Shown in pieces: positions 19,723 to 55,682 of a DNA stretch of 64,000 bases (position 1 is its first letter; each line of letters opens with the position of its first letter). A model generated the notes under the pieces. That model was given only the letters and a program-made list of their open reading frames with translations, ran no database searches and had not been told where the DNA came from. Location: positions 778-64,777 of the forward strand of contig JAESTE010000006.1 of assembly GCA_016763735.1 (NCBI GenBank), written 5' to 3'. The position numbers and the translations under genes are program-made. The DNA comes from Nitrospinaceae bacterium (lineage in GTDB: Bacteria > Nitrospinota > Nitrospinia > Nitrospinales > VA-1).

Positions 19723-19749
19723 ACGAGGTACGTTTTCATGAACAGGATT

Positions 19750-21177: not shown

Positions 21178-21206
21178 GCGGTAGATTGAAGGTGTGAGGT
21201 GTGCGA

Positions 21207-30831: not shown

Positions 30832-32669
30832 ATGAAGCGAGCAGCCGAAGAGATGGGTGCGGTGCACAACGAACGTGTGCGCAAGGCGGTGTGCCCCAAC
30901 GAACTCCATGACGACGTCGCAGGGATCGCGAGTCGTTCCTTGAACACCTTCAAGGTTACGTTGGTTCGAGCCCCCCGTGAAATCGACTCCATCCACATGA
31001 CGGCCCGGGAGTACTACATCAACGCAGAGTTTGCGAGTTTGGTACGCAGAGGGGACATCTACAGGAACGAAGACTGGGAGAGCCTGGGCGGATCCACGGT
31101 ACGTCGCTCGGTACGTCTTTGTGTGCAGCCTTCTGTGTAGAGGGACACGCACTGACACACGACACTTGTATGCATACACAGACCACGTTGTCCGACGTGT
31201 TCACCCCTGGTCTACCAACTGGAGGCATGTGTGACCCGGACATGGCTGGAATACAGACCCTCATCAACCCCTCCACGACCTTCACGTACAGGTCCCGCGC
31301 AGTGAACCGGTACGCTAACCTCACCCACGCCTTCCCTCCTGTGGCCACCCGCCCAGGCTTCAACTTGTATGCGTCCTACACCCCGCCGACTGCGGCCCAT
31401 CCACGTCTCACCCACACCCGCCTGGACCTGCACTGGCTGCGCATGGACGTGAGCGACTTCCTGTCACGCGCTGTGTTCGACACCGACGACACGTACACCT
31501 CGTACAACGTGGCGGTCAATGCCATCACGGTGGGGATCTACAAGGCGTGTCTGGCCCGTGTCGCTTCCAGTATGCACTGCCGGGGAGACCTGAACAAGTT
31601 GCTACGGGATGACGCAGATGGCATATCGGTCTTTGCCCACGCCCTTCTGCCCGCGGTGTGTCTGCCTGGCATGGATGTCGACGTCAACACAGACGTCATC
31701 ACGGTCCGTGAACCCCTGACCTCACTTGAATCCTTCTCGTTTGTCTTCGGGCCACCCAAGGATGACGACCCCTCCATGTTGCCTGGCATGCGCAAGAGGT
31801 ACACCGTCCCCCGGATCCGCCACATGGTCACACACATTGCGCTAGGCAGATGCCACGACCTGGAGGAGGTGTACACGTACATGTGCCAAGGGAAGGGCAC
31901 CCCCACCATTGCCTTGGCCACGCCCAGCTCGGCGACCGGTCCCCTGGGCGACCAGTCCAGTACAGTGATCATTGACATGCTGTTCGCCAACACTCAACTG
32001 CACGAGATGGGGTTGATCACCACGGCTGACCTGTGCCCCCACGACCCAGGCGTGGTCTTCATAGACTGTCGACTGTCCTATGCGTCTGTCGGCCTCGTTG
32101 ACTACGTGCTCTACGTCAAGTACGTCACCATCAAAGGCATATGCTTTGACCAAGGCACTCAGTGTATCCTGATGACCGTGTCCATGGACCTGGCAGCGGT
32201 GGCGTTCGAGCGGAAAGGGCAGCACATCCAACTACACGACGAAGTGTACGACAGGGTCGTCTACCGTGACACCCTCGTTACCGTGAACGTGACCTACGTC
32301 CTCAACCGACGGGTGCCGGTACACACGTCCATGGCCACCGACTGCCGCCGGTACAAGCAACACGAGTTGGGTCACCACAAGACTCTCTTTGCGTGGAAGC
32401 AGTATGGCTTGTCCATCAAAACACACGACCTGCCCTTCCCTCCCTACAACAACCCAGGCATGGTCACGAGTCGGTTCGAGACCGAGGTCCGGGATTTTGT
32501 GACCTGTGACGGCGGAGGCATGGGCTGGTTCATTGTACGCTCTGTGGCCCACCGCATTGGGACACAGAACTTGTTGGAGAGTTCCATGGACCAAGTCACT
32601 GACCCGCACACACGCAAAACACACACCTTCCCCGCTGACATCCACAACCTTATCCTGTCGTACGTGTAG
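30832..32669 (+). CDS. family A protein, paralog 1 (spliced, two exons)
   Basis: Exon 1 is 30832-31098 (ttcaccATGa). The intron is 31099-31181, with an alternative donor at 31111. Exon 2 is 31182-32669. It shares TADLCPHDPG and the C-terminal FPADIHNLILSYV motif with the genes at 40829-42748 and 42832-44310. Confidence 0.6.
31099..31181 (+). other. 83-nt (or 71-nt) spliceosomal intron
   Basis: ACG|GTACGTCGCTCG|GTACGTC...TGCATACACAG|ACC. Both tandem GTACGT donors (31099 and 31111) keep the frame. The acceptor at 31181 joins the frame of track ORF 30718..31140 to that of ORF 31119..32669. Confidence 0.55.
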
Positions 32670-40120: not shown

Positions 40121-40181
40121 ACTTGACGTGAACCCCCTGTACACATTTGAATTTACGAAAGTATTTCTCAAGTCTTCCGCG

Positions 40182-40710
40182 AAGTATTTCCTAAGTATTC
40201 GACAAGTATTCCTTCGAGAGACTTGAGAAATACTTGTTGAATACTTGAGAAATACTTGTCAAATACTTTGTACCGAGATTCTGCTGAAGTCCGATCGAGA
40301 GGGGGGGTAGGGTCTTGTTCCCCCCTAACCGACCGGTGCCTTTTCGGTGAATAAATAGGTTCACCTTTTGTGACAGCAATCAATTAACCGAGATGTCAGG
40401 AACCGTGAAACCTATAAGGTGGGGTTTTATGATATAGTCGGTAGATGATTGACTGGTACTATGCACAGTAGGACTAGTCCATCCTGGATTAATACCCAAA
40501 CTATACCCCGGGGATAAACCTATTTACCGTTTGAGAACATAGTCCCGAAAATACACCGATCGGTTAGGGGGGAACAAGACCCTACCCCCCCTCTCTATTG
40601 GACTTCATGAGAATCTCGGTACAAAGTATTTGACAAGTATTTCTCAAGTATTCAACAAGTATTTCTCAAGTCTCTCGAAGGAATACTTGTCGAATACTTG
40701 AGAAATACTT
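40182..40710. repeat. large imperfect palindrome (157-bp arms, about 215-bp AT-richer centre)
   Basis: Left arm 40182-40338 and right arm 40554-40710 are reverse complements at more than 90 percent identity by eye. The arms are built from AAGTATTTC/GAAATACTT sub-repeats plus GGGGGGTAGGGTCTTGTTCCCCCC. Weaker symmetry continues inward (40345-40365 versus 40512-40530). The element lies in the 708-nt gap between convergent genes. Confidence 0.85.
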
Positions 40711-40828
40711 GGTGGAAACCTTACAAAAACTTCAGCTCGACTCGCAACACTACGAAGTGCGAACCTCCTCAGGATGAACGCAGAGAAAAGGGGGTGCACA
40801 GGAGACTTGGGAAATTTCTCAAAAACCT

Positions 40829-42748
40829 TTAGTTCACGTAACTTTGCACCAGATCACACAACACACTGGGCAGACGACGGTTGTGAAACAGCGCCTGACG
40901 CGTGACCTGTGCGGCCGACATGCCTGCGGCGGTAGTGGTAAGGGCCATCCAAGGCAGGGTGTGTGCCTGGGCACAGAACGCCCGCACAGTCTCCGAGCAC
41001 ACGCATATGACGCGCGCCTCACTTCGTGTGTCGTCAACCTCCAGGTCTGGAGAGAACACACACTTCACCGGTCGTTCGTGATAAGACGGGGCGGTGTACC
41101 AAGTGAAACAGTCCTTCTTGTCGCGCGGCTGGTACACGGTCAACGTGAGCTCTCCTCCCCCTGGGTTGCGGGAGTAGACGTCTCCCGCCAGCGACCAAGG
41201 CAGGTCGTACACGGCAACGTGTGTGCACCGTACGGTACCTCCTGGATTGGCGTAATTGCTGTCTGGGCCGATGACAAAGTCCACCACAAGTTCCAGTGTC
41301 AGGGTCATGGACATGATACAGGGGTCGTACGCCAGAAGCAGCACCCTCAGCGAGTGCAGATGGATCAACGTACTGCATCCCGCCACGAGTCCGTCAGGGT
41401 AGCCGACCGGAGCCAGGTCCATCATGTCGGGGTCGAGGGACACGGGGCCCGGGTCGCGCGGGCACAGGTCGGCGGTGTTGATCAAGGGAAACGCACTGTC
41501 TTCCTGGTGCAGTATGTCGTATATGAGTAGCGCCGCGCGTACCCGGTTTGTGTGACCTCTGAACCCGGGCCGGGCCTTTTCAGACTCGAAGAATACCGGG
41601 GGAGGCAGTCGGTCGTGGTCTTCGCAGAAATGTGCGTACACTTGCTTGAGGGCAGTGACGCGCTGGTTGGCGATGCGGGCCAGGGAATGGGGGATGACAG
41701 GGGCCAGGGTGCGATGGAAACGACGAAGTACACACTCCAGTGCACACTCGTCACCAAACAACACGAACTCGGCGGCGTGCTCCACGCCGAGCAGCTCCGA
41801 GAAGGTCCATGGGACGAGGTCCACGGACCGTGGCAAGAATACGGGAGGCAGCGCGAACAACTCCTCTGCGGCAAACGTCGAGCACGCCTTGTGGAATTGG
41901 ACGTGGTAGTTGGCGAGGGGGTCGAAGTACACGACACTCCTCCCGCCGTTGCCCACGGACAGGCGGCACCCCAACTTGACCATGTCGTGGTACAGTCCCA
42001 CGGTCATCATGCGAGACAACATGGACATCATCGCGGTAGGTTCGGAACACTGGAACGCAGACACTAGTGATGTGACGTCGGCACTGTACCAGTCGAGGTC
42101 CCGCTCGGTAAAGGTTGTGAGGGGCAGGGGAAGGGTGTGGATGGAGCCGACCAGCACAGGAGCCTGTCCATGCAGAGAACGACGCGAGAGGTGCATGAGG
42201 TCGTTCCCGGCCAGGTTAGACGCGGACGCGTTTGGGGCACGGTAATTATGGTCGAGTTTGTCGAGTCGACCCCAGTACGTGTCCATGGACAGCGAGGAAA
42301 TGCCGTCGGGGCGTCGTCGTGTCCGACCTTGAGCCTTCCATTCACGAGACCCTTCCACGCCTGTGGTGAACAGCCCGCCGCAACGCACAGGGGATGCCAT
42401 GAAGTCGCGTACATCGCCGAGAATGGTTACTTGGGCTGTGCTGGCACGTCCGGGTAAACAAAGCACCATGATCTTGGCACGCTGACGTGCGTCCAGGCAC
42501 CCGAAGTCGACAGGGGCCTGGTCGATGAGGTACTGGACAGTGGGGGTGATGGCGTACGTTTGGCGGAGCCCTCGGGTCCCGCCCACGGGGTCCAGGTCGG
42601 CGAAGGACATACGTGACGGGGCATGACGCTTGGGCTGTATCTCGGGAGGCATACGAGACGACGCGGCCTGGCTGCGATGAGGCGGAGTGTAGGGCAGGAC
42701 CTTGCGCTTGCGCGTGGAGAGGTCATCAGGGTCCATGGCACTTGACAT
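40829..42748 (-). CDS. family A protein, paralog 2
   Basis: The track ORF runs to 42997 across the promoter motifs and the neighbouring gene's 3' end. The ATG at 42748 gives MSSAMDPDD. It shares TADLCPRDPG, IPHSLARIANQRVTALKQVY and the C-terminal LPSVLCDLVQSYVN with its paralogs. Confidence 0.6.
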   Translation of the reverse strand: MSSAMDPDDLSTRKRKVLPYTPPHRSQAASSRMPPEIQPKRHAPSRMSFADLDPVGGTRGLRQTYAITPTVQYLIDQAPVDFGCLDARQRAKIMVLCLPGRASTAQVTILGDVRDFMASPVRCGGLFTTGVEGSREWKAQGRTRRRPDGISSLSMDTYWGRLDKLDHNYRAPNASASNLAGNDLMHLSRRSLHGQAPVLVGSIHTLPLPLTTFTERDLDWYSADVTSLVSAFQCSEPTAMMSMLSRMMTVGLYHDMVKLGCRLSVGNGGRSVVYFDPLANYHVQFHKACSTFAAEELFALPPVFLPRSVDLVPWTFSELLGVEHAAEFVLFGDECALECVLRRFHRTLAPVIPHSLARIANQRVTALKQVYAHFCEDHDRLPPPVFFESEKARPGFRGHTNRVRAALLIYDILHQEDSAFPLINTADLCPRDPGPVSLDPDMMDLAPVGYPDGLVAGCSTLIHLHSLRVLLLAYDPCIMSMTLTLELVVDFVIGPDSNYANPGGTVRCTHVAVYDLPWSLAGDVYSRNPGGGELTLTVYQPRDKKDCFTWYTAPSYHERPVKCVFSPDLEVDDTRSEARVICVCSETVRAFCAQAHTLPWMALTTTAAGMSAAQVTRQALFHNRRLPSVLCDLVQSYVN

Positions 42749-42786: not shown

Positions 42787-42808
42787 GTCGACACCCAACT
42801 GAGTCGAC
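42787..42808. promoter_or_regulatory. two GTCGAC motifs upstream of family A paralog 2
   Basis: GTCGAC at 42787 and 42803. In gene sense this reads AAATGTCGACTCAGTTGGGTGTCGACATTTC, 40-60 nt upstream of ATG 42748. Confidence 0.45.
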
Positions 42809-42831: not shown

Positions 42832-44310
42832 TTAATACAAATAATCTGTCACAACCTCTGACAGGGCACGGGGGAACGCAGCCCGGCGCTCCAACATGGC
42901 GCGGGTCCCGGCCACGAACCGGTGCTGATGGGCCAGTTTGCGCACCACGTACCAGGGTAGGTCCTTGATCTGGGTGACCATCTGTCCCGCGGCACACTCC
43001 AAGGTGGCTATGTATATATCAGAATCGTGTACGCCTCGGACCTTGCCCTGAAAGCCCGTGGCGAGCGATCTGGTTGTATGTTCGCTCCAGTGCAGCGCGT
43101 GTGCGTGATGGACGGCATGGGTGGGGCGGTGGAGGGTGTACTCTGCGATGACGTCCACAATACGCGCTTCGGACGGAGGCTTCATCTGCTTAGGCGAGTC
43201 CACCGCAAGGGGGTAGATGAGTGTCGTCAGGCCGAGACGCATGGTCAGGATCCCGTGGCCGGCGTGATAGTCCAGGCTGAGGAGGGCAATGTCACGGACC
43301 CAAGTCCGGTAGACGGGGGTGGTGCAGGTCATGCAGCAGGACATGTGGAGAGGGCACACGTCGGCTGAGGTCGCGGCGTTCACCACCCGTTCCACATCTC
43401 CTGGTCCCAGACCACGCAGTGCCTCGGACAAATAGTCAAACTGGCGTCCGTACCTCCAGCTGCCGCCCCAGCTGCCGTCCGGTACAGTAACTTTGCATGA
43501 CTGGGGGTTCTCGTGAGGGGTGTCCATACGCAGGGTTGAGGCGGGGGCAGGGTCATAGGTAATGTGGAACGAATCGTACAACTCCTTCAGGTCGGCGACG
43601 CGTTCGTGTGCGATGGTGATGGCCATATTCCATAGGGCCGGGACGATGATCGTGCGCAGCGCGTTGTCGAGAGGTTCGGCAGCTGCGACGCTCCTCCCTT
43701 GCGTGAAGTCTTCGGCTTCGCGGCGACTCAATTTGCACGGAATACCACGTGGTTTCACACAGTCCAGAGTATCGGGTGGAGGCGGGTAAGAGAGATGGTA
43801 TGCGTCAAAGGGGACGTGTGCCCACCCGCCTCCACCCGTGCAGGGATCTTTACCGCGTGCAACCCATTGTTGGCTGAGTCCCAACGCCATCATGCGTACG
43901 GTGCTCTTGAAGACAATACTGTAGGAGTGCAGGTCGCGGTTCCTCTGGGGGGACACAAGGAAGGTCCAGTCGAGCAACGTCTTGTCTATCCAACGCAGAT
44001 CCTTAGAGGTTCGGGTGGACTCGGGCATGGTGTGAGTGGTACGAAAGGGGAGTACGACCACGTCCATCAGCTGACGAGCGGCCGCGTGCTGTGTCAGGCG
44101 TGAAATCTTGAGGTCGGCCTCGAGGAACACCGTGGAGTAGCCAATGGTAGGGACAATGTTCAGAAGAAACGGTTCCTCGTTGCGTCGGGCGGCGGACTTG
44201 GTCTCGTCCATCAACCTCTGGCGGGAGTGCCGGGTCGTTTCCAAGTATTCAGAGGTCGTGGCCATCCTGGGGCGTTTCACTGGAGTCGACGACGAGGCAG
44301 CAGCAGACAT
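42832..44310 (-). CDS. family A protein, paralog 3
   Basis: The track ORF starts with TTG at 44328; the first ATG is at 44310. It shares SADVCPLH, VPALWNMAITIAHERVADLKELY and the C-terminal FPRALSEVVTDYLY with its paralogs. ATTAAA (42831-42836, minus sense) overlaps the TAA stop. Confidence 0.6.
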   Translation of the reverse strand: MSAAASSSTPVKRPRMATTSEYLETTRHSRQRLMDETKSAARRNEEPFLLNIVPTIGYSTVFLEADLKISRLTQHAAARQLMDVVVLPFRTTHTMPESTRTSKDLRWIDKTLLDWTFLVSPQRNRDLHSYSIVFKSTVRMMALGLSQQWVARGKDPCTGGGGWAHVPFDAYHLSYPPPPDTLDCVKPRGIPCKLSRREAEDFTQGRSVAAAEPLDNALRTIIVPALWNMAITIAHERVADLKELYDSFHITYDPAPASTLRMDTPHENPQSCKVTVPDGSWGGSWRYGRQFDYLSEALRGLGPGDVERVVNAATSADVCPLHMSCCMTCTTPVYRTWVRDIALLSLDYHAGHGILTMRLGLTTLIYPLAVDSPKQMKPPSEARIVDVIAEYTLHRPTHAVHHAHALHWSEHTTRSLATGFQGKVRGVHDSDIYIATLECAAGQMVTQIKDLPWYVVRKLAHQHRFVAGTRAMLERRAAFPRALSEVVTDYLY

Positions 44311-44312: not shown

Positions 44313-44403
44313 GTCGACAGCAGGTCAAGTGAACGTTTGGGATAATTTTACATAAAACATCGACTCAAGTCGACACCCGAGTCGACTCCTAACACAAGTC
44401 GAC
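44313..44403. promoter_or_regulatory. cluster of four GTCGAC motifs upstream of family A paralog 3
   Basis: GTCGAC at 44313, 44369, 44381 and 44398, with a fifth at 44285 inside the coding start. In gene sense this reads AATGTCGACTTGTGTTAGGAGTCGACTCGGGTGTCGACTTGAGTCGATG. Confidence 0.5.
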
Positions 44404-45192: not shown

Positions 45193-45197
45193 TTAAT
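45192..45197 (-). terminator. ATTAAA hexamer bridging a stop codon and the next start codon
   Basis: In minus sense the sequence reads TGATTAAATG. TGA is the stop of the nuclease gene (45199-45197), ATTAAA is 45197-45192, and ATG starts the next gene (45192-45190). The poly(A)-signal role is inferred. Confidence 0.35.
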
Positions 45198-46813
45198 CAG
45201 TGAACGTGCGAGTCGTATCGTCGGTTCTTGGTGCGTTTCACAGTGCGCAAGTTGGGGTCGGTAACAGTCTCAGCAGGGCGTTTGCGCACCTGGGGATTGA
45301 ACGCGTCGCGCTCGAACTCGTCCTCCTCTTCCACCTCCTCCTTGGACTTGTTGTAGTCATGGGTCTTGCGACGTGCCACGGGTTTGGGTACCTTGCCGTT
45401 GGCGGGGGCGTACGACGCGGCACGCTTGTAGTCAGGGCGGGCACCCAGCATACTCGCGTTGGGAGGGAACAGAGGGGTGCTGGCCGGCGCAGTGAGACCC
45501 GGTGCCGCGGCCCGGGGCGGTGCAGACAAGGGGTGCACCATGACAGCGTTGCGGGTGAAGGCGTCGAACGTCATGTCGAAGCGCTTGGGGTCGTTCCATT
45601 CCAAGGTCCAATACTGCAGGTTGAAGCAGATGGCGTTGTAGGCTTTGCGCAACATCTCGCTGCGGGGTACACCCGGACGCAGACCTTTGTGTTCGCTGGT
45701 CTCCCACAGCCGCTCCAGCGACGCCAAGACCAGTCGTCTGCCACTCTTCTCGCTGCTGTCGGGGACGGACGTGTTGTACCCCCACTTCTTGCCGTACACA
45801 AAGCGCACGATGTTGACGAAGCGGCTGATGGAGACCTGGATGTTGCCGAGTCGTCGGCGTACAGGGGCGACCCGTTGGTACTCTTCAAAGATCTCGAACA
45901 ATTTGTCACAACCGAACCCGTGCAAGATCTCCTTCTTCACCACGTAGTCTGTGCCGCACATCACCACCATGGCCATGAACTCGTAGATGGTGATGCCGCG
46001 TTTCTTGGTGAGGTGGGTATGGATGGTGCCAATGTCGCAACGCCACTCCTGCCAGTAGCGCAGCGTGATCTTGGGGCGGCGTTGGAGGGGCATGCAATCG
46101 TACACATGCAGGAGGATGGGCATGAGGTCTGAGTCGATGCTGCGCACCACAATGTGCTCCTTGGCGTGGGACACACGGTTGACCCAGTAGGGGATCTTGA
46201 GGTCGGCTTCTCCAAAGTGGTTGTCGGGGGTCGACAGTAGGGTACGCCCCTCGTCTGTGAAGACGTAGGCGCCTTCCTCGAAGTGATCGAAGACCAGGCG
46301 GCATCCATGAGGCACCGCCAGCTTGTGGTCTTGCCACGCATCGATGACGTAGCGCCACAGCGCCGACCTCAGTACTCGGTTGGACATGACACACCGTATG
46401 TCCATGCGGGTGGGTTCAGATTCCACTCCTGTGCCACTGTCTGGTAGGCACACGCCCACGTCGCTGAACTCAATGTCGACGGGGTAGGGTTTCACGTCGG
46501 GGTCTCTGTTGTTGTCCCTGTTCTTCTGCTCCACGGCCTTCTCGCGTGGCACCCACTTCTGCAGGTCGCAGCACAGGATGACGGTCACCACGGCTCCTGA
46601 TTCGAACATCACCCGGGCCTGGCTGTAGACAAAGTCGCAGATCTCCTTGCCCGAGAAGGTGAAGTCTCCTTGAGGTCCTCGGGCCCGGATCACGTCTGTG
46701 AGGAGGTCAGAGATCATGACTCCACGTCGTTGGTGCGACGCCGTCTGCGAGAAGGCGTTGGGGCACCACTTGGGGCCCCTCATCATCTTGCGGATTTTAG
46801 TGTCGATTCCCAT
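45197..46813 (-). CDS. FEN1/XPG-family (flap/5'-3') nuclease-like protein
   Basis: MGI... N-terminus in cgaccATGg context. Acidic N-domain (VILCCDLQ). FGEADLKIPYWV...HIVVRSIDSDLMPILL fits the XPG-I motif (EAExx...DSD). FMAMVVMCGTDYVVKKEILHGFG fits the H3TH motif (GxDY..i.GiG). Basic C-terminal tail. Confidence 0.7.
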   Translation of the reverse strand: MGIDTKIRKMMRGPKWCPNAFSQTASHQRRGVMISDLLTDVIRARGPQGDFTFSGKEICDFVYSQARVMFESGAVVTVILCCDLQKWVPREKAVEQKNRDNNRDPDVKPYPVDIEFSDVGVCLPDSGTGVESEPTRMDIRCVMSNRVLRSALWRYVIDAWQDHKLAVPHGCRLVFDHFEEGAYVFTDEGRTLLSTPDNHFGEADLKIPYWVNRVSHAKEHIVVRSIDSDLMPILLHVYDCMPLQRRPKITLRYWQEWRCDIGTIHTHLTKKRGITIYEFMAMVVMCGTDYVVKKEILHGFGCDKLFEIFEEYQRVAPVRRRLGNIQVSISRFVNIVRFVYGKKWGYNTSVPDSSEKSGRRLVLASLERLWETSEHKGLRPGVPRSEMLRKAYNAICFNLQYWTLEWNDPKRFDMTFDAFTRNAVMVHPLSAPPRAAAPGLTAPASTPLFPPNASMLGARPDYKRAASYAPANGKVPKPVARRKTHDYNKSKEEVEEEDEFERDAFNPQVRKRPAETVTDPNLRTVKRTKNRRYDSHVH

Positions 46814-46898: not shown

Positions 46899-47918
46899 AT
46901 GGACCCGAACACGCAAGATACCGACCCGGCGTCCCGTGCCCAGCGCAAGGCAGACCGGGCCGCGGTGCGTGCGCTTCGACGCCTCAAGCTAGAGGAGAGG
47001 GCACGCAAGAAGCGCAAGAAAGCAGTCAAGGTGTCGACTCCTGCGCCTCTTCCGCTCCCGGTGTCGACTCCGCCAGAATCGACAGTTTACCCCGGTGAAC
47101 TCCCTGACTACTGGGCCGGACGTCGGGCAGCGGTGCGTGCACACCTCGAAGCCACGCGAGTCCCGGGCTTTGTCCCCCCTTTCAAAAGAGTGTGGCATAT
47201 CCCGGGGTACTGGCGCAAGGCCTGCGTCCTGTTCCGCACCTGGTACATCACCAAGTGGTGTGAGTCAGACGCGGCGAAACGGTTTCGTTTGATGTCTGGT
47301 GCAGTGTCACGACGTCTGAGTCACGCTCAAGACACCCTACCGGTGAACTTCCGCTGGGTGCAGTTGCTCTGCAACTACCAGGACCCCGAGGTCGGAGACT
47401 CTTTGGTGTGGAATTGGGCTCAGCAACTGACTCAAGTGGAGACATCTGAGCAACTGCAACACGCTCTGGACCACACCCCGCACCTGACAGGTGGACTACT
47501 CAAGGCTGTGCTGTTGGCTGCGCTGTGTGACACCACGGCCAAGACCCTGTTGAAGAACTCCATCGCTCCGTGTCGTGTGGGACTGGGCACCTTGCCGCGC
47601 AACACCAAGAAAGCGAGCAAGGCTGTGCGTCAGCAACATGAAGAGGATGCCACCTACGCCGGGTTCTCGCCGACCTCCCAGCAGGCTGTACCTGCCAGAC
47701 TGCCTCGCGCCCCCGCAGCCCGAGGTGGTCGCACCGTCGTCGCCAAGAAGAGGAAGAGGGTCGGGGGAGGTGGCCATGGCCATACAGGGAATGGACGGGC
47801 TGCTGACCACGGACGGGACAGTGTTGGGGTCCGACGCAAGGTCCATGCCTCTGGCCGAGACTCGGGAGTCGGTGGAGACAGGAAGCAGTCTGGACCACGC
47901 CCGCCTGGCCAGCTCTAA
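46899..47918 (+). CDS. hypothetical basic protein (3' end uncertain)
   Basis: The first ATG clear of the divergent nuclease gene is at 46899 (MDPNTQDTDP); an alternative ATG at 46812 overlaps the opposite-strand ATG within CCATGG. Third-position G/C is strong up to about 47690. After that the +1 frame, which carries the next gene, looks more coding. Confidence 0.4.
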   Translation: MDPNTQDTDPASRAQRKADRAAVRALRRLKLEERARKKRKKAVKVSTPAPLPLPVSTPPESTVYPGELPDYWAGRRAAVRAHLEATRVPGFVPPFKRVWHIPGYWRKACVLFRTWYITKWCESDAAKRFRLMSGAVSRRLSHAQDTLPVNFRWVQLLCNYQDPEVGDSLVWNWAQQLTQVETSEQLQHALDHTPHLTGGLLKAVLLAALCDTTAKTLLKNSIAPCRVGLGTLPRNTKKASKAVRQQHEEDATYAGFSPTSQQAVPARLPRAPAARGGRTVVAKKRKRVGGGGHGHTGNGRAADHGRDSVGVRRKVHASGRDSGVGGDRKQSGPRPPGQL

Positions 47919-48942
47919 CAAGTGGACGTACCGTGAGAAGTGGGCCTTGTACAAACTCTACCGCTCCATGTGTGCCCACTTGACTCAACGCGTACGGTTC
48001 CGTTCCCTGCGCCAACCACACACCTGCACCGCCGACTGCCACTTCTACTCTGCCCGCCGCCTCAACCGCTACTTGTCCATCTGTAGTGCGTCGGGGACCG
48101 TGCACATGTGTGGGCCCAGCCGGTGCCAGAACATCCTGCGTATGCACGACACACAGGTGTGTGGGCTGACCTCGGTGCAGATGAAGCTGGAGCATGCCCA
48201 TGCCCTGCCGGTGGGCAATTACATTACGTCGCACTGGCCTGACCACATGGCCTTGCGTGGCAGCCGCGCCTACCACAGACGACTCAGACAGAAACGCTTA
48301 GGACCTTGGGTGGTGTTGGGGCCACGTGAACTGGAGCAGCAGAAGCGACGCGAGGCCAAGGGAGGAGGACGAGTGAGGGAGGTGCGGGCGCGACGCAGCA
48401 GGTTGTCGGTGATGAGTGACCTGTCAGACAAACGCGTGACCCAGTCTCGTCTGGACAAGTTCCGGGAAACCACCAAGGCCATCCTGTTGCGCACCAAGTT
48501 CAAGCCCACCTCTGAGCAGTTGGAGGAACTGGTGCAGATGTGCGAAGACATGTGGCGGCTAGTGGTGCAGAGCAAGGCGTACCCGTTCAACAGCTTGGCG
48601 TACAGTGCCGTGTACCATTGCCTCGTGGTGTTGTACTGTGCCAGCGAGGGGCTGTGCTTGACTGTGGCCACTGACGACCCTGGAGGAGAGGGAGTGGAAC
48701 GGTTTGTGATCTTGGAACAGTCCCAGTTGCTTCACGACTACATGCCTCTGCGTAACGAGTGTGCCCCTCCGTTCGAGAGCAAGCAGCTGACAGCCATGGA
48801 GCGTCGTTTCCTGGACTGTATGTCTACGTGTTCCGCCAAGTCCATGCACGAGTACACAGATCGTGTGCGTGGGCGTGCCGGGCCCGCGTGTACGGCCTCT
48901 GCGGCCTCCAGCAGTGACACACAGATGCAACAAAGCACATGA
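47638..48942 (+). CDS. Cys/His-cluster protein, unknown function
   Basis: ATG at 47638, with an alternative at 47776. HTCTADCHFYSARRLNRYLSICSASGTVHMCGPSRCQNILRMHDTQVCG is a plausible zinc-binding cluster. Basic coiled region, then a helical C-terminal domain. Its TGA overlaps the next ATG as ATGA (48939-48942). Confidence 0.5.
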   Translation: MKRMPPTPGSRRPPSRLYLPDCLAPPQPEVVAPSSPRRGRGSGEVAMAIQGMDGLLTTDGTVLGSDARSMPLAETRESVETGSSLDHARLASSNKWTYREKWALYKLYRSMCAHLTQRVRFRSLRQPHTCTADCHFYSARRLNRYLSICSASGTVHMCGPSRCQNILRMHDTQVCGLTSVQMKLEHAHALPVGNYITSHWPDHMALRGSRAYHRRLRQKRLGPWVVLGPRELEQQKRREAKGGGRVREVRARRSRLSVMSDLSDKRVTQSRLDKFRETTKAILLRTKFKPTSEQLEELVQMCEDMWRLVVQSKAYPFNSLAYSAVYHCLVVLYCASEGLCLTVATDDPGGEGVERFVILEQSQLLHDYMPLRNECAPPFESKQLTAMERRFLDCMSTCSAKSMHEYTDRVRGRAGPACTASAASSSDTQMQQST

Positions 48943-49727
48943 AATATATGAACCTGTCTTCGCCACACTTGTGTAACGTCTCTATGGACCCGCTAAGGGA
49001 GGAGGGAGGGTTGTGTGTGCGTCGTCCCGGGACAGTAGGTCCGCCTCAGCACTACTCGTCTGCTCCCTTGGTGATCACAGCTCCCTTGTCTACGTACCCG
49101 CCTGAACAGCAGTCGCAATGGGTGCGTGTGGACTCGTTACGTGGCGTCTACACCCCGGCCGCGCAGATGCCCTTGAGGTCGTACCAGTCCACGGTGAGGT
49201 GGCGCCGACGCCGACGCAGAGGGCAGACCAAGCGTGCGTCCCCCATGTTTGCCTACCTGATGTCGTCCAAGCAACGACCGTACATTGGTTTGGCGTCCAA
49301 CCCCTTCATGCGCCTGAGGTGTCACAACAGAGAGGCCAACATGCCTTCGGGGGCCAAGTCTACCCGCAGCGGGGCGCCGCACTGGCGTATGCGTATGGTG
49401 ATTGGACCCATGTTCCGAGGCGCCGACGCGTTCCATGCGCAGTGGCGGGACGAGAGCCGTAAGTTGACGTGTCGCCTGGCGCAAGGGTGTCTCAAGGCCT
49501 TGACGTACCGACGTGACGGGCTGTGTGTGTGGGCCGATGACCCTGACGCGGTGATTCAGAACTGCCTGGACAACATGAGACGTCACCACCGGCGCCTGGA
49601 GTCCGCTCTGGCCTTCCACCGTCGTATCGCATGCCTAAGCAGCATCCCCACGCCGGCCCGCCGCCCGTCTATACTCCAAGTAGGAGAGGGGTCCCACCAC
49701 ATACACCTAACTACGAGTTCAGATTGA
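48939..49727 (+). CDS. SLX1-like GIY-YIG (URI) nuclease domain protein
   Basis: MFAYLMSSKQRPYIGLASNPFMRLRCHNRE...GAKSTRSGAPHWRMRMVIGPMF..AFHAQWR matches the SLX1 pattern FYCCYLL.S...FYVGSTPNPVRRLRQHNG...GA.RT....RPWEM..IV.GF....AL.FE.AWQ (yeast Slx1, recalled from memory). About 100 aa precede the domain. Alternative starts at 48948 and 48984. Confidence 0.7.
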   Translation: MKYMNLSSPHLCNVSMDPLREEGGLCVRRPGTVGPPQHYSSAPLVITAPLSTYPPEQQSQWVRVDSLRGVYTPAAQMPLRSYQSTVRWRRRRRRGQTKRASPMFAYLMSSKQRPYIGLASNPFMRLRCHNREANMPSGAKSTRSGAPHWRMRMVIGPMFRGADAFHAQWRDESRKLTCRLAQGCLKALTYRRDGLCVWADDPDAVIQNCLDNMRRHHRRLESALAFHRRIACLSSIPTPARRPSILQVGEGSHHIHLTTSSD

Positions 49728-50018: not shown

Positions 50019-50915
50019 TTACGTGGCGGAAACAGAATCTACATGGTTGACGTAGCCGAACACGGCGCTCTCGGGCTTGAACGTGGACCAGTCTTGCTCG
50101 GTGGGGGAGAAGAAGGGCTTGGTGGGCGGCACCACCAGCACACGGGACAGGTAGACGGTATGGGCTCCGTCGTAGATGTCTCCCTTGTGCACCAGCCACG
50201 GGTGTTTGAGTTGGGCAAACCCCCAGCGGTCGCCTACCTGCGCGGCCATCTTGGCGTGCCCCACGTGTCGCATCACCAGATGACGTAGCGCCGGCACCAT
50301 GAACAGGCCACGGTGGGCACCAGAGACCAGGTCCATGCAGTTGTACAGTTCCAGGTGTTCCACGTTGAGATGGCGCAGCGTCTCCACCAAGTGCGGCACG
50401 GTCTCGTGTGGCTGGTCTGCGCCTTGAGCCAGGCCGTGCATGTTGACGTGCAGTTCGCGCAACTGAGTCGCGCCGCGCAAGATGGTGCACACCATGGTGG
50501 TGAAGGGGAACGCACCGGCCAGGTCCAGGCGACGCAGTTGAGGCAGGTTCTCCACCACCAGTTGCAGGATCATGGGGCTCAAGACTCCGGTGATGGCCAC
50601 CGACACCACCCCTTGCAGGTCCTTGATCAGACGTCGACGCAAGTGGTCGCGGTACAGTCCCCAGGCCGTGGCTTGCCCGAACATAGAGGGAGGAGGGCGC
50701 AGTTCCAGGTGCCGGGTGCGGTTCAAGATGTCGCGGTGTTGGTTGACCAGCTGATGTGCGGTGTCGATACGGATGCTGCGCCACTCGGGGAACCTAGGCC
50801 GTGCCATGTGTTGGCAGTGTTGCATGCGTTCAGGGAACTTGGACGACGTGCTGCTCTCTGTGGCCATGAGCTGGGCCACAGACAAGTCCGTGGACATAGC
50901 GACCCGGCTCTCCAT
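50019..50915 (-). CDS. leucine-rich-repeat-like protein
   Basis: 298 aa with a true ATG. LQLVVENLPQLRRLDLAG, ATQLRELHVNMHGL, TLRHLNVEHLELYNCMDL and VPALRHLVMRHVG resemble LxxLxxLxL repeats. Confidence 0.5.
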   Translation of the reverse strand: MESRVAMSTDLSVAQLMATESSTSSKFPERMQHCQHMARPRFPEWRSIRIDTAHQLVNQHRDILNRTRHLELRPPPSMFGQATAWGLYRDHLRRRLIKDLQGVVSVAITGVLSPMILQLVVENLPQLRRLDLAGAFPFTTMVCTILRGATQLRELHVNMHGLAQGADQPHETVPHLVETLRHLNVEHLELYNCMDLVSGAHRGLFMVPALRHLVMRHVGHAKMAAQVGDRWGFAQLKHPWLVHKGDIYDGAHTVYLSRVLVVPPTKPFFSPTEQDWSTFKPESAVFGYVNHVDSVSAT

Positions 50916-50972: not shown

Positions 50973-51692
50973 TTATTCACCGGTCTGCCCCGTATAGAAC
51001 GAGGCCCCGAACCGCACTCGCAGTCCGTACAGGATGTCTGGGACACGCACAGTACGGCACCGACGGTGTTTGACCACCACAGAGGAGGCGTACGCCAGCT
51101 CGTTCGTCAGGGCTTGAAGCATGTAGACCGCGGCACGGGACACGTCACCAGAGATGAAGGTGGCGCCGGCGCGTTGGCACATGCGGAACCCGGCAGCACG
51201 GCGCCAGTTCTGCATGGGGTCAACCTTGAGGGCTCTAGACTTTTGGTGACGGCGCGGCAAAGGGACGCGCTGGCTCAACTTGCCGCTGACGCCACGAGGT
51301 TTGCCGATCTTGGCAGCCTTGGGAGACTTGGAGGATTTGGCAGGCTTGGGGGACTTGCGTGGGGAGACACTGGACTTGTGGCGGATGACGGGGTCGATGT
51401 CTTCCATCTTAGCTTCGACGTCGTCAGCGGTGAGCTCGTCCTCCTCTTCTTCCATGTCTTGGCTGGCCACGGGAGGCGCCACGTCGGGTGACTGCTCCTC
51501 GGTCACGGGAAGCTGCTTGCGTGCCTGCACTTGTTTGCGCACAGGCGCCTCCTGCTCCGAGTCGGAGTCAGAGTCTCCGTCGCTCTCGAGGGCGTCGGGG
51601 GTACGGTGTTTCTTTCCGTTCGAAAGCATGGGTTGTTTGAGTTTGTCATGGACCATGGACAACGCTTCAGCACCACGGGCAACGGCAAGCAT
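50973..51692 (-). CDS. histone H4-like histone-fold protein with long N-terminal extension
   Basis: The C-terminal 95 aa align with H4. RRHQK aligns with KRHRK. MCQRAGATFISGDVSRAAVYMLQALTNELAYASSVVVKHRRCRTVRVPDILYGLRVRFGASFYTG aligns with [65 protein letters not shown]. The N-terminal roughly 145 aa carry an acidic block (SDGDSDSDSE, MEEEEDE) and SPKK-like repeats (SPRKSPKPAKSSKSPKAAK). The track start at 51701 is GTG; the first ATG is at 51692. Confidence 0.8.
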   Translation of the reverse strand: MLAVARGAEALSMVHDKLKQPMLSNGKKHRTPDALESDGDSDSDSEQEAPVRKQVQARKQLPVTEEQSPDVAPPVASQDMEEEEDELTADDVEAKMEDIDPVIRHKSSVSPRKSPKPAKSSKSPKAAKIGKPRGVSGKLSQRVPLPRRHQKSRALKVDPMQNWRRAAGFRMCQRAGATFISGDVSRAAVYMLQALTNELAYASSVVVKHRRCRTVRVPDILYGLRVRFGASFYTGQTGE

Positions 51693-51841: not shown

Positions 51842-52333
51842 TTACTGGGTTCTCCTCCTCGGCATGCGTAGTTCGTCCAGTCGTTCTATGACTTCAGCAG
51901 GCAGGGAGGGATTGGGGGTGGAGCGCCGGCGTTCCTCTGCACACCGACGTACACTGAGTCCCAGCACACGGGCAGGTTTGATTGGAGAGGCCTCGATCAA
52001 TCTCTGGCTGCCTCGGCGAAGCACATGCACATCACAACGAGTCCTCTGGCGGATCCTCACCGTGGTGCCCGGGGTCAGAGGGGCCAGCCGGGCCACCAAG
52101 GCGTCAATGGGTACGAGTAGTGGATCCAGGGGTACAATCACCTTCTGACTGGACGCACTGGGTGTGTTCTCTGAGCTATCGATGGACATAACAGGCGTGT
52201 CAAGTATGGTCCGTGTGGCCGAGGCCGGGGTGTCTGCGTAAGGGTGTGTAACGGACACTGGATCAAACTGGTCTGACGGACTAGGCGCGACGGCGCCTGT
52301 CTTCTTCGGGGTTACCGACGTGCCACACCCCAT
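51842..52333 (-). CDS. small protein with MGCGTS N-terminus (predicted myristoyl/palmitoyl acylation)
   Basis: An internal ATG at 52333 of track ORF 51842..52699 gives MGCGTSVTPKK. The upstream part of that ORF overlaps the better-supported gene at 52395-52730. An AATAAA lies between the two genes. Confidence 0.45.
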   Translation of the reverse strand: MGCGTSVTPKKTGAVAPSPSDQFDPVSVTHPYADTPASATRTILDTPVMSIDSSENTPSASSQKVIVPLDPLLVPIDALVARLAPLTPGTTVRIRQRTRCDVHVLRRGSQRLIEASPIKPARVLGLSVRRCAEERRRSTPNPSLPAEVIERLDELRMPRRRTQ

Positions 52334-52394
52334 CACATACACTACGTCGTACACTTGTTTTATTTGTACATCAACGGATTGCAATGCTTGAGGG

Positions 52395-52730
52395 TCACAG
52401 TCGAGGACGCGAGGTCTGTGCAATGTCATGGAGCCACAGAGACCGGCGGCGAGAAGGTTGTCGGTCGTGTCCCTTGCCGCGTCGCATGTCAAACAGGTCC
52501 AAAGAACTGTAGCTGTCTTGGCTGGTGCTTTGCCCGGGAAGTTTCCCCTCGGGCATGCCCAGGCAGGCCACGACGTGTTGTTCGTTGAGGCCGATGCACA
52601 TGCTGCGGTGTGGACTGAGCGGAGGGATGCGGCGGGTGTGAGACGGGAGGCCACCAGGTGAGTCGCGCGGCAAGAAGCCCAAGTGTTGGGGCACGACAAT
52701 GTCTTGATCGGTAGAGAGAGTACAGCCCAT
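52395..52730 (-). CDS. small protein with MGCTLS N-terminus (predicted myristoyl/palmitoyl acylation)
   Basis: gttaccATGg at 52730 gives MGCTLSTDQD, identical in its first six residues to the dual-acylated N-terminus of G-alpha-i/o. 111 aa. Preceded by a GTCGAC promoter cluster. Confidence 0.5.
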   Translation of the reverse strand: MGCTLSTDQDIVVPQHLGFLPRDSPGGLPSHTRRIPPLSPHRSMCIGLNEQHVVACLGMPEGKLPGQSTSQDSYSSLDLFDMRRGKGHDRQPSRRRSLWLHDIAQTSRPRL

Positions 52731-52809
52731 GGTAACGCGAGAGAGAACTGAGAGTATGCCTTGGATCAAACCACCCACAAGAAGTCAACGAGGTCAAATG
52801 TCGACATCA

Positions 52810-52923
52810 AAAAGTCGACTTTGGAAGTCGACATTTAATGTTTTCTTATTACACCCTCTGTCGATGTCGACTTGGTGAAATGTCGACTTTCGAATCAACA
52901 CGGGTGAGTCGACCGGGGGGAGG
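52810..52923. promoter_or_regulatory. divergent promoter region with six GTCGAC motifs
   Basis: GTCGAC at 52810, 52824, 52837, 52876, 52892 and 52918. The region lies between the minus-strand ATG at 52730 and the plus-strand ATG at 53052. Typical units are AAGTCGACTTTGG and ATGTCGACTTGGTG. Confidence 0.55.
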
Positions 52924-53051: not shown

Positions 53052-55682
53052 ATGAACGCAGCATCTTACGAAGATACCGAGGCAGTGGAGACACAGGCGC
53101 GTAAGAAGCCCAGACCCCAGGACGTGGACATGAGCTCTGACCATGACCAGGACGGCGAAGACGCTATGTCGGGCGAAGACGACACCATGTCCCCTGAAGC
53201 CATCCGCAAGGAACTCGCTGCTCAGCGCAAGTTCCAGACCACGGAGTCGGAAGACAAGACGGAGGACAGCCAGCGTGTCTTGCAGGACGTGGTGGCCAAC
53301 CTTCAGCGTCAGCGGCAACACCTGAGGGCCCAAGAGGACATGGCAGACATGGCGGCTACTCTCAAGTCTTGTCCCCAGACCGCCAAGGCTCTGATGGCCG
53401 ACGCGGCTGCCAAGAAAGCCAAGAAGGCCAAGCGATTGTCTCTGGCGGCGGACAAGTTGGCGTTTATCAAGACCATGGGCAACAAGCCCGCCAAGAAGAA
53501 GGTGGCTCCCCCTCCTATGTCTGCCAAGGCCCGCATGGCCAGGGCCGTCGCGAACGAGAGGGCCGCCCTCCTCAGCGTGGGTGTGGACCCTGACACCTTG
53601 TCAAACAAGAAGGCTGTCCCACGAGCCCCCAAGTCGCGTGTGGTGGTCAGCGACTCGGACGACGACGACGTGGACGTGGACGAACTGGACTTGACGTCTG
53701 GTCCTCCTCCCCCTCCTCCGACTCCTGTTGCCCCCACCGAGGAGGAAGAGGACGCGATTGAAGACGCGGAAGCAGTGGCCGAAGAGAAGGCCGCGGACGA
53801 CGAGGACGACGACTACCAAGTGGGCGACCAGTCGGGAGAGGAGGAAGAAGAAGAGGAAGAGGAAGAGGACGGCGATGAGGAGGAGGAAGAGGAAGCAGAG
53901 CAATCCGAAGACGACAGTGCAGCCGGAGGAGACCAGAGCGAGGCCATTGGTGTGCAGCAGTCGATGGCCATGGATGCAGACGTGGACATGTATGAGTCCG
54001 ACGAAGAGGACAAGGAAGAGGATGCCAACGTGCCTTCTCCCCCTCCTCCGCGCAAGATCACGTCGAAGAAGCCTCCCACGTCCCGTCCCTCCGCCAAGAA
54101 GCGCAAGGCGGTGGTAATCCCCCCCTCTGACGACGAGGAGGATCAGGAAGAAGAGGACGTCGGCATGGACCAGGAACCGGAGGAAGACCCACTGGAGTCG
54201 ACTCCGCCCTCTACCCCCGTGGTGCAGAAGTTCCCTCCTGTCAAACCCAAGTCCAAGCCCAAGTCCAAAGCCAAGCCTAAGTCCCGGTCCAAGCCCTCTG
54301 CTCCTGTGGCCACTGTCGACTCGGACGCAGCACAGTACACGTCAGTGGAGAACCCTATGTACGAAGGGCCTGCCGCCGAGGACGAGGACCAGATCCCCCG
54401 TGTGTCTGTTGGCAAAGGCTGGACCGACGCCGACCTCAAACTCTTCAAGCCAGGCGACATCAAGCCTACTTCGGTCAAGACCACCAAGACTCGTCTGATG
54501 GGCAAGCGAGTCTACCATATTGGTACGGTGCAGTGCACTCTGCCCGTGGGAGGGTTCCCCTTGGACCACGACCCCAGCTCCAAGCACTTTATAGACACGG
54601 TGTTGCAGGACAACTGGACCCACTTCAAGGTGTGTGTGCCTACGGGTCCGGCAGAGTGGATCTCTCTGTTGACCCTGCCCAAGAAGAAGGATCACCCGCA
54701 GACGTACTGGGCCCCCAAGAGCGGCTTGGTCAAGAAGATTGAACGCGCCATGTGTCGCAACGCTACCTTGGACGGGGAGCAGCGCAAAGACTTTGGCGAC
54801 AAGGTGGGCAACACTCGCCTGGACAACGAGCGGTACCGTCGTGTGGGCAACCTGTGCTTCCAGACTGTTCCGTATTCCAAGAACCAGATCGCGGCCTTGG
54901 TCAAGGCGCAAGGCGCAGACGGTGACGGCGACGTGGGGCAGTACCAACTGCTTGTGCGCCCACTCATGCACTGGGAGGCATGGACCCGGGCTGTGCATTC
55001 GTTCTGCAGCGGCAGGAACAAGCGCGAGGCTGCACGTGACGCCTCCCCTGTGTCGTCTCCTCAAGGCAACAAGTCTCCTGTCAAGAAGCGCAAGGTGGTC
55101 TTCCAGACCTCCCTCGCCGCGTCTGTCGACGCATCATGTGCGGCTGCCGCTGCCAAGGGATCTGCCGCTGATATTGCGGACATCCCTCTGCCCGACGGTG
55201 GCACCCCAGACGACAAGACCTTTGGGGACTTGCATAACCACATAACTTCTCTGGCCGGGGTCGGTTCTGCTGGAGTGGAGGCTGCCATGTACGGTCTCCA
55301 CCGCTCTATGACACCTGCCAAATTCTTGGAGTGGGCCATGTTTGCTGGGCGAGAGAGCCACTTCAGTTCGATGGACCAGCTGATGGAGGTGATCAAACAG
55401 GAATCCGACTTCAAGCCAGAGGAGCGGATGCTGGCGCTGATCGTCATGCAATGCCCCACTGTCATGAACTCCCTGTTGGGTCTGCTCCGTACCTCCATCC
55501 AGCTGACGACGCATCCTTTCCACTCTGCCCCCGCCCCTGACCCCATGATCGCCCTGTCCGCCAAGTACGAGCCTCCGCTTCGCAAGCGCAAGGTCCCGCC
55601 CACGTCATCGAGCAAGTCTGTGCGTAAGGTGGCCACTACCAAACGGACCAAGGGCAAAGTGCCCACGCGACGAGTGAAGTGA
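53052..55682 (+). CDS. large acidic/basic low-complexity nuclear-type protein, unknown function
   Basis: The track start at 53025 is GTG; the ATG is at 53052 (caccATGa). Long poly-Glu/Asp tracts (EEEEEEEEEDGDEEEEEE). A KSKPKSKAKPKSRSKP repeat and several KKRK-type basic clusters. A more globular C-terminal half of about 400 aa. Confidence 0.6.
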   Translation: MNAASYEDTEAVETQARKKPRPQDVDMSSDHDQDGEDAMSGEDDTMSPEAIRKELAAQRKFQTTESEDKTEDSQRVLQDVVANLQRQRQHLRAQEDMADMAATLKSCPQTAKALMADAAAKKAKKAKRLSLAADKLAFIKTMGNKPAKKKVAPPPMSAKARMARAVANERAALLSVGVDPDTLSNKKAVPRAPKSRVVVSDSDDDDVDVDELDLTSGPPPPPPTPVAPTEEEEDAIEDAEAVAEEKAADDEDDDYQVGDQSGEEEEEEEEEEDGDEEEEEEAEQSEDDSAAGGDQSEAIGVQQSMAMDADVDMYESDEEDKEEDANVPSPPPPRKITSKKPPTSRPSAKKRKAVVIPPSDDEEDQEEEDVGMDQEPEEDPLESTPPSTPVVQKFPPVKPKSKPKSKAKPKSRSKPSAPVATVDSDAAQYTSVENPMYEGPAAEDEDQIPRVSVGKGWTDADLKLFKPGDIKPTSVKTTKTRLMGKRVYHIGTVQCTLPVGGFPLDHDPSSKHFIDTVLQDNWTHFKVCVPTGPAEWISLLTLPKKKDHPQTYWAPKSGLVKKIERAMCRNATLDGEQRKDFGDKVGNTRLDNERYRRVGNLCFQTVPYSKNQIAALVKAQGADGDGDVGQYQLLVRPLMHWEAWTRAVHSFCSGRNKREAARDASPVSSPQGNKSPVKKRKVVFQTSLAASVDASCAAAAAKGSAADIADIPLPDGGTPDDKTFGDLHNHITSLAGVGSAGVEAAMYGLHRSMTPAKFLEWAMFAGRESHFSSMDQLMEVIKQESDFKPEERMLALIVMQCPTVMNSLLGLLRTSIQLTTHPFHSAPAPDPMIALSAKYEPPLRKRKVPPTSSSKSVRKVATTKRTKGKVPTRRVK

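Follow-up and report, generated by a model that had tools for sequence, protein, structure and literature searches.

Viral histones fall into two classes in the survey of Talbert, Armache & Henikoff (2022; PMC9145170): single, recently captured histones that are 73–89% identical to those of the host and enter host chromatin, and divergent histone sets with 22–48% identity that form viral nucleosome-like particles. In IMG/VR, singlets of H4 and of H3 belong to the most frequent kinds of viral histone (bioRxiv 10.1101/2024.12.06.627149; PMC11222145). In Nucleocytoviricota, H4-like singlets are co-encoded with other viral histones; the Clandestinovirus protein is 30% identical to eukaryotic H4, that of Medusavirus has no significant identity, and some of these proteins carry long non-canonical N-terminal tails, such as the 100-residue tail of the Pithovirus LCPAC304 singlet (PMC9145170). 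For mirusviruses, two reports describe histones as a core function and place most of them in distinct H3 clades (Gaia et al. 2023, PMC10132985; PMC12768974). Here we describe an H4-like gene in a 64,000-nucleotide stretch of DNA (the window) from contig JAESTE010000006.1, which is filed under a Nitrospinaceae bacterium. The gene lies at 50973..51692 on the minus strand and encodes 239 residues. A histone fold derived from H4 makes up the C-terminal ~92 residues and follows a long tail in which an acidic block precedes a basic one. We propose that the gene probably encodes a highly diverged H4 of an unclassified large eukaryotic DNA virus, which pairs with a viral H3 and wraps viral DNA.

The H4-derived histone fold

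The gene is complete, running from an ATG with A at position −3 to a stop codon, and is supported by the open reading frame (ORF) call, by its coding signal and by a match in NCBI. Taken mechanically, the ORF opens at a GTG that lies 9 nt before the ATG. The NCBI match is the 239-residue product entered as 'MAG: hypothetical protein JKY23_00485 [Nitrospinaceae bacterium]' (MAG, metagenome-assembled genome) on a 65,708-bp contig. The G+C content at third codon positions is 0.72–0.73 in the tail-coding and fold-coding halves alike and 0.72–0.82 in the other long ORFs of the window, and the plus-strand ORFs that overlap the gene are most likely shadow ORFs.

The histone-fold domain covers residues 148–239 (50976..51251, minus strand) and was recognized by a family profile, hhalign, AlphaFold2, Foldseek and a shuffle test. 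At its start lies RRHQK (residues 147–151), a remnant of the H4 basic patch whose Arg147 is just outside the domain. A short N-terminal helix (148–153) is followed by α1 (165–174), loop L1 with the sequence TFISG, α2 (184–210), loop L2 with RRCRTV, α3 (217–228) and a C-terminal SFYTG.

In a pairwise BLASTP comparison with human H4, residues 148–233 align collinearly with H4 residues 17–98 (E=7.5e-4), with 23/86 identities (27%), 48% positives and gaps of three and one residue. The same program returned nothing for the H4-like protein against H3, H2A, H2B or HMfB. The Smith-Waterman score of the domain is 68, compared with 25.9±4.6 for 5000 shuffled sequences, none of which scored as high (z=9.1). 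When the single sequence was searched against the PDB with phmmer, H4 accounted for 59 of the 60 top matches, albeit with E values of only 0.03–0.4; these align from H4 residue 16/17 to 98, and the 60th is an unrelated match to the tail.

Profile searches gave a divided answer. The single sequence matches no Pfam family, even at E≤10, PF00125 (Histone) and PF15511 (CENP-T_C) included. When 1.84 billion cluster representatives were searched exhaustively with HMMER, six relatives of the protein (P0002–P0007) were recovered, three of which, P0002, P0003 and P0005, likewise fail the Pfam histone models. However, a family profile built from four members (the window protein and these three relatives) matches H4 chains in the PDB with E=3e-15 over H4 residues 16–98, and its top 60 matches are all H4. 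Similarly, hhalign aligns the family with H4 over 87 columns with a probability of 97.8% (E=1e-12), whereas the values for H3, H2A and H2B are 0.4%, 0.8% and 1.3%.

The structural comparison points the same way. An AlphaFold2 model built with a seven-sequence alignment has a disordered N-terminus followed by the four helices listed above, with a predicted local distance difference test score (pLDDT) of 70–83 over residues 190–230. All 50 of the best Foldseek matches of this model in the PDB are H4 chains, with target-normalized template modeling scores of 0.61–0.82 (most >0.7) and, in most, a root-mean-square deviation of about 2 Å over 74–79 columns. In a library of viral structures (BFVD), ranks 1–3 are occupied by the H4 singlets of Marseillevirus LCMAC102, Medusavirus and Clandestinovirus; a histone-like entry of LCPAC304 at rank 12 may not be the singlet with the 100-residue tail. 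Because the family profile, hhalign and the structure search with the AlphaFold2 model all select H4, we regard the assignment of the fold as secure. A preliminary description, made from the sequence alone, had this domain tracking H4 almost position by position. The collinearity it saw is real, but at only 27% the identity was overstated. The three segments that it singled out all occur in the protein: in the alignment with H4, RRHQK falls on the K16–K20 basic patch, RAGATFISG on α1/L1, and HRRCRTVRVPDILYGLRVRFGASFYTG on L2–α3 plus the C-terminus.

Alternatively, the fold could serve only for dimerization in a non-nucleosomal adaptor of the kind represented by TAFs, NF-Y and CENP-T, with the tail recruiting transcription or genome-tethering factors. 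With its histone fold at the C-terminal end of a long disordered region, the protein resembles CENP-T in layout, P0002 and P0003 have weak Pfam matches to TAFs (E 0.07–0.13), and several of the DNA-contact arginines of H4 are lost in the window protein. We nevertheless consider an adaptor quite improbable. The similarity is specific to H4 and extends from the basic patch to the C-terminal YG, and the PDB matches obtained by sequence, profile and structure are almost all H4, with neither TAFs nor CENP-T among the top matches. Moreover, the net charge of the fold stays at +11, compared with +13 for H4 residues 17–102, and an H3-like gene is present in a relative, as described below.

Relatives, charged tail and putative H3-like partner

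The window protein forms one subfamily with P0002, P0003 and P0005. Its members have in common a PKRH motif, an NW or NF before α1 and a one-residue insertion that gives RFG after α3; an RLC motif in the three relatives corresponds to RMC in the window protein, and AYVLQA is common to P0002 and P0003. The remaining relatives, P0004, P0006 and P0007, are nearer to canonical H4; they, too, are extended at the N-terminus, with stretches of acidic and of basic residues. Of the relatives' contigs (L001–L006; GC 56–64%), L001, L002 and L004 are from TULL18-1 assemblies (SAMN07571245, SAMN07571238), and L003, L005 and L006 are Logan assemblies of SRR5988120, SRR5988111 and SRR8616221. The mirusvirus survey, which describes mirusvirus signal from oceanic crust with reference to Tully et al., attributes these metagenomes to that setting. 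P0007 is encoded on a contig of another kind (L007, from DRR337533; GC 33%), which looks giant-virus-like and carries genes for a capping enzyme, a NUDIX hydrolase, an SF1 helicase and PP2C, along with a near-canonical H3 at 578–1048 and the N-extended P0007 at 3834–4226. H4-like proteins with an extended N-terminus are therefore not confined to the clade of the window protein.

In a word-indexed homologue search, the H4-like protein finds only itself and the family profile finds only the known members, and an exact-sequence contig lookup with the window protein returned no record. The family profile has no match in IMG/VR or in JGI metagenomes, and an exact 40-mer of the gene is absent from the GTDB representative genomes. 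Two further single proteins of the window, compared with IMG/VR, also had no match there.

Residues 1–147 of the window protein are predicted by AlphaFold2 to be disordered, and composition divides them into three segments, all on the minus strand. The N-terminal 34 residues (51591..51692) contain three candidate starts, M1, M13 and M22, and a low-confidence predicted helix at residues 3–18. The acidic block, residues 35–101 (51390..51590), has 23 D/E against 5 K/R, for a net charge of −18, and includes SDGDSDSDSEQE, with four overlapping CK2-type S-x-x-D/E sites, and DMEEEEDELTADD. The basic block, residues 102–147 (51252..51389), is rich in S, P and K and has 14 K/R and no D/E, for a net charge of +14. 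An imperfect 18-nt tandem repeat (51318–51357) overlaps the DNA coding for its SPK stretch. There are three SP motifs in the basic block, SPRK, SPKP and SPKA, of which SPRK alone fits the S/T-P-K/R-K/R consensus; SPRK is also a full CDK site. The canonical H4 tail with K5, K8, K12, K16 and K20 is absent, and only RRHQK aligns, to K16–K20. The charge counts thus bear out the earlier observation that the H4 tail has been replaced by an acidic and then a basic segment. What had been called an SPKK repeat comes down to a single consensus motif, the other two being only SPKx, and none of the three is conserved in the relatives.

The order of acidic block, basic block and fold is repeated in P0002, P0003 and P0005, although their basic tails are devoid of SP-K/R-K/R units. 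P0002 and P0003 share 69% identity in the fold, where the ratio of nonsynonymous to synonymous substitution rates (dN/dS) is about 0.17; a forced global alignment of their tails gives about 41% identity. The fold is thus under purifying selection, and the tail retains its composition and charge pattern, not its sequence, across this small clade.

To look for a partner, we searched all 902 six-frame ORFs of at least 40 residues in the window with phmmer and hmmsearch --max, using H2A, H2B, H3, H4, HMfB, the H3-like protein described next and a small H3 profile as queries. Only the H4-like ORF matched, in searches that could miss a partner as divergent as the H4-like protein itself; Pfam also gave no histone among the called genes of the window (small ORFs at E≤10). 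In the related contig L001, on the other hand, an H3-like gene lies about 9 kb from the H4-like gene (19617–20258, minus strand). Its 213-residue product, P0008, matches the Pfam Histone family with 30.5 bits (threshold 26.4; E=5e-7), and its best match is H3, with 29% identity over 77 residues of human H3 (E=6e-6). The N-terminus of P0008 is that of a canonical H3 (MARTKATPRAP...); a long insertion precedes its fold, and the protein is extended at the C-terminus. A homologue search with P0008 finds only itself, making it a singleton in a collection of 15 billion proteins. The region that encodes it is also present on L009 and L010, and L009 extends the H3-like side with no further genes in common with the window. 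Because P0008 is encoded on L001 together with the H4-like gene, at least one member of the clade carries an H3/H4 singlet pair. The preliminary description had likewise seen no other histone fold in the window, and its suggestion that the partner is encoded elsewhere in the genome fits the arrangement on L001. The 'lone' H4 of that description is probably an artefact of the 64-kb view.

At 27% identity to human H4 and 29% identity to human H3, the H4-like fold and P0008 are both within the 22–48% range of divergent viral histone sets. At least two histone genes per genome are seen in L001, which has both the H4-like and the H3-like gene, whereas the 64-kb window shows the H4-like gene only. 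The 27% identity, together with the H3-like partner in a sister lineage, suggests that the protein belongs with the divergent multi-histone class, and membership in this class favors a virus-specific H3/H4 pair that wraps viral DNA. The divergence itself also favors such a pair over insertion into host nucleosomes.

The alternative in which a viral H4 joins host H3 in host nucleosomes, as CvBV-H4 of bracoviruses does, would make the protein a manipulator of host chromatin whose aberrant tail disturbs transcription or chromatin structure. The window protein does keep H75, Y88, R92 and Y98, which we take to be contacts of H4 with H2B and H2A, as well as the RRHQK remnant of the basic patch. A partner histone was not found in the window, and CvBV-H4 also has a long N-terminal extension (PMC9145170). 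Such a role is nonetheless unlikely, in our estimate, since the fold is only 27% identical to H4, compared with about 87% for CvBV-H4 and 73–89% for other host-directed singlets (PMC9145170), and since the canonical tail lysines K5, K8 and K12 are all lost. In addition, the sister virus has an equally divergent H3-like gene of its own.

In the reading that we prefer, a virus-specific H3/H4 pair, the H4-like protein would form a handshake heterodimer with a virus-encoded H3-like partner from outside the window, and the pair would wrap viral DNA into tetrasome- or nucleosome-like particles. Wrapping would serve either condensation and packaging of the genome or a virus-specific chromatin in the host nucleus. 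By analogy with the tails of H1 or sperm H2B, the basic S/P/K block would act as an additional DNA-condensing arm. The acidic block, with its many CK2-type sites, would cover the basic surfaces ahead of assembly and so work as an internal chaperone or auto-inhibitor, and both blocks could be modulated by phosphorylation of the SP and S-x-x-D/E sites.

Several points weigh against this proposal. The searches detected no gene of H3, H2A or H2B type in the 64 kb, and an H3-like partner is known from only one of the four clade members. In the alignment with H4, the DNA-contact basic residues are replaced at R35F, R39Q, K44T, R45F and R78C, with R36, K77 (as R) and K79 (as R) being kept; P0002 and P0003 keep most of these basic residues, and P0002, P0003 and P0005 all keep R45. 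The roles given to the two tail blocks are purely our inference. Finally, no capsid, portal, terminase or polymerase gene was recognized in the window or in L001–L009, so that the viral nature and the lineage of the contig are read from context only.

The genome around the gene

About 34 well-supported genes on both strands cover about 88% of the window, with no evident introns. Pfam searches of every called gene, many of them admitting E values up to 10, found only EGF repeats and one ankyrin protein, along with sub-threshold matches to PriL, GIY-YIG and RING. The start codons share the context CA(C/A)C-ATG: position −3 is an A in 19 of 34 genes and position −1 a C in 24, and a Shine-Dalgarno-like core precedes 2 of the 34. 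There are no tRNA genes or housekeeping genes in the window. The six frames of the 64 kb contain no Walker A motif ([AG]xxxxGK[ST]), and ATPases of the helicase, terminase or packaging kind seem to be absent from the window. Based on the Kozak-like starts, the density of ORFans, the compactness, the glycoprotein genes and the intergenic motifs, the contig is most likely a eukaryote-infecting large DNA virus or virus-like element that was mis-binned into a bacterial MAG and whose lineage is unplaced.

Three other placements were rejected. A bacterial origin, as in the MAG label Nitrospinaceae, does not agree with the start-codon context and gene content. The only hint of an affinity with Medusavirus, Pandoravirus or Mollivirus is a GC content of about 60%, and the H4 is just 17% identical to Medusavirus H4. 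For Ariadnavirales, the describing preprint (10.64898/2026.08.29.747986) states that histones are lacking.

It is also conceivable that the gene is cellular and encodes a histone variant of an unknown compact, GC-rich protist genome. The start contexts are of eukaryotic type and no viral hallmark gene was recognized in the window, as would be the case for such a genome. We regard this origin as highly improbable, however, because about 34 genes are essentially without Pfam domains or detectable homologues, none of them is a housekeeping gene, and about 88% of the sequence is coding and shows no sign of introns. The H4-like and GIY-YIG-like families have no relatives in IMG/VR or JGI metagenomes, and GTDB, scanned with the GIY-YIG family and the exact 40-mer, gave none either. 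Moreover, H4 is one of the most conserved proteins of eukaryotes, and no cellular H4 near 27% identity is known to us. The neighbors of the gene are ORFans and do not make up a cellular histone locus, in keeping with the virus-like setting that the preliminary description assumed.

A trio of adjacent genes, H4-like, leucine-rich-repeat (LRR)-like and GIY-YIG-like, occurs in the same order in the window and in the related contigs. The LRR-like gene (50019..50915, minus strand) begins 57 nt past the stop codon of the H4-like gene and encodes 298 residues that match proteins of L001 and L004 with a phmmer E of 1e-27; a protein of this type (~290 residues) is the downstream neighbor of the H4-like gene in every related contig. 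By eye, the product looks like a cysteine-containing leucine-rich repeat protein of the F-box/LRR type. It has no Pfam match at E≤0.01, and a single-sequence AlphaFold2 model reaches a pLDDT of only 39. The third gene (48939..49727, plus strand) encodes an SLX1/YhbQ-type GIY-YIG-like protein that is 56–59% identical to the relatives' copies. It contains what we take to be the GIY-YIG motif, and its Pfam GIY-YIG match is sub-threshold (E=0.02). A profile of this family has no match in IMG/VR, JGI metagenomes or GTDB genomes. Beyond the trio, about 40 kb of related sequence contains no match to the window.

On the other side of the H4-like gene, two small ORFs lie directly upstream on the same strand (52395–52730 and 51842–52429). 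One begins with MGCTLS, a myristoylation/palmitoylation signal of the G-alpha-i type, and the other has an internal MGCGTS that is probably the true start; from these motifs, the products resemble acylated proteins of a membrane or tegument type. At the upstream position, an unrelated protein of 158–161 residues is encoded in the related contigs. Divergent from the H4-like gene run is a gene for an 876-residue protein (53052–55682, plus strand) with poly-E tracts, KPKSKPKS repeats and a globular-looking C-terminal domain of ~400 residues, whose composition resembles that of chaperones or chromatin proteins. The related contigs lack a homologue of this protein and have an unrelated one of ~1000 residues at the equivalent position.

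Three genes at 7–8258 encode membrane glycoprotein-like products: an EGF-rich protein of 1050 residues (EGF repeats at 7–3159, with teneurin-type EGF matches in Pfam), a type-I protein of 1311 residues and a cysteine-rich protein of 368 residues with a transmembrane segment. In the 1311-residue protein, a signal peptide and numerous N-x-S/T sites are present, and a coiled coil directly precedes the transmembrane anchor. This cluster suggests an enveloped virion. A candidate PriL-like gene at 21286–23076 (plus strand) matches PF04104 with E=3e-4 and 20.7 bits, under the threshold of 22.4, and its segment FTPCMVAIHKKWPHLRFGPRQLYG presumably corresponds to the conserved PriL motif. PDB sequence searches returned nothing for the 1311-residue glycoprotein, for a suspected nuclease (45197–46813) or for the PriL-like protein. 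Three further genes are ORFan paralogues (31170–32669, plus strand; 40829–42748 and 42832–44310, minus strand), related at BLASTP E values of 1e-7 and 3e-5. The first two share the motif 'TADLCP.DPG', and the C-terminal ends of all three are similar.

The palindrome GTCGAC occurs 61 times in the window, compared with 31±5 expected, and 24 copies are in the non-coding 12%. The copies, often as (T/G)GTCGAC(T/A), cluster tightly upstream of a subset of genes, at 19688–19717, 20420–20449, 21164–21318, 30493–30505, 42787–42803, 44313–44398, 47033–47063 and 52800–52908. The six copies at 52800–52908 head the co-oriented gene run that holds the H4-like gene, and a 56-nt block with three copies is duplicated at 20399 and 21186 (86% identical). 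These clusters are probably a shared promoter or transcription-factor site; clustering is not obvious in L001, L004 or L009. Two large intergenic inverted repeats are situated within the two longest non-coding gaps, where the GC content is 0.54–0.56. One has 178-nt arms (40170–40347 / 40545–40722) that are 93% complementary, with a 197-nt spacer and 11-nt tandem units such as AAATACTTGTC within the arms, and the other has 118-nt arms with 83% complementarity (30451–30568 / 30688–30805). Both are candidate replication origins or enhancer-like repeats.

Virus-encoded histones bear on the organization of large-DNA-virus genomes and on the origin of the nucleosome. The clade described here adds a very divergent H4/H3 singlet pair, thereby widening the known sequence space of viral H4, and it does so from a viral lineage with no recognizable hallmark gene in the about 100 kb sampled. 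Because Pfam models miss its H4-like members entirely, censuses based on hidden Markov models undercount viral histones. The conserved bipartite tail is also a compact test case for the rebuilding of histone tails. The find is notable in that the protein is unseen by Pfam, its four-member clade is absent from the viral and metagenome collections scanned, and its viral lineage is unplaced. Stand-alone divergent viral H4s with long tails have already been described, which makes it incremental unless the lineage that carries it is new; a full genome showing a new group of histone-encoding viruses would raise its significance. A bolder proposal, which taken as a whole we rate as rather improbable, is that the contig and three sister lineages are undescribed, enveloped-looking large DNA viruses of deep-sea protists, outside Nucleocytoviricota and the described mirusvirus orders, with their own H3/H4 singlet pair, a self-chaperoning tail, and tetrasome-type chromatin that is built with neither H2A/H2B nor host chaperones.

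Comparison with described viral and sperm histones

The closest viral structural counterparts of the window protein, the H4s of Marseillevirus LCMAC102 (A0A481YUI9), Medusavirus and Clandestinovirus, are likewise stand-alone viral H4 folds with low identity to eukaryotic H4. However, the window protein is only 12–20% identical to the Nucleocytoviricota H4 singlets, and no sequence relationship with them is detectable apart from the H4 fold itself. Unlike these proteins, its clade has a signature of its own (NW/NF, RLC/RMC and the RFG insertion) and a conserved tail in which the acidic segment precedes the basic one. The contigs of the clade contain no recognizable Nucleocytoviricota gene, and the clade is absent from IMG/VR.

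Mirusviricota resemble the inferred source of the window in being large DNA viruses of marine protists with divergent histones. In the mirusvirus reports, GC contents range from 25 to 72%, many genomes are without replication and transcription genes, as is the window, and seven mirusvirus capsid genes come from the TULL18-1 dataset that is also the source of related contigs. By contrast, genes for an HK97 capsid, triplex, portal and terminase were not identified in the window, and the histones named in the passages searched of those reports are H3s only, not N-extended H4s. By analogy, a mirusvirus affiliation of the contig is plausible.

Bracovirus CvBV-H4 is similar in being a viral H4 with an added N-terminal extension, which in that protein is lysine-rich and 38 residues long. 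CvBV-H4 is about 87% identical to insect H4, keeps K5, K8, K12, K16 and K20 and enters host nucleosomes (PMC9145170). The window protein, in contrast, has 27% identity to H4 and has lost these tail sites except for the RRHQK remnant.

The sperm histones H1 and H2B of sea urchins reportedly carry tails of SPKK motifs (described, we understand, by Suzuki in 1989). The window protein resembles sperm H1 and H2B in having an S/P/K-rich basic segment N-terminal to the histone fold, in which SPRK fits the consensus. It differs in that only one of its three motifs does so and that the motif is not conserved in the relatives, where only the basic charge persists. The basic block is also preceded by a strongly acidic segment, whereas sperm histones are without one. 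Extended N-terminal tails with extra acidic residues are found among viral histones in the H2A and H2B of Medusavirus and the H2B of Pandoravirus (PMC9145170). Those tails belong to other histone classes and are modestly acidic, with 8–11 such residues, whereas the tail of the window protein is a compact succession of −18 and then +14.

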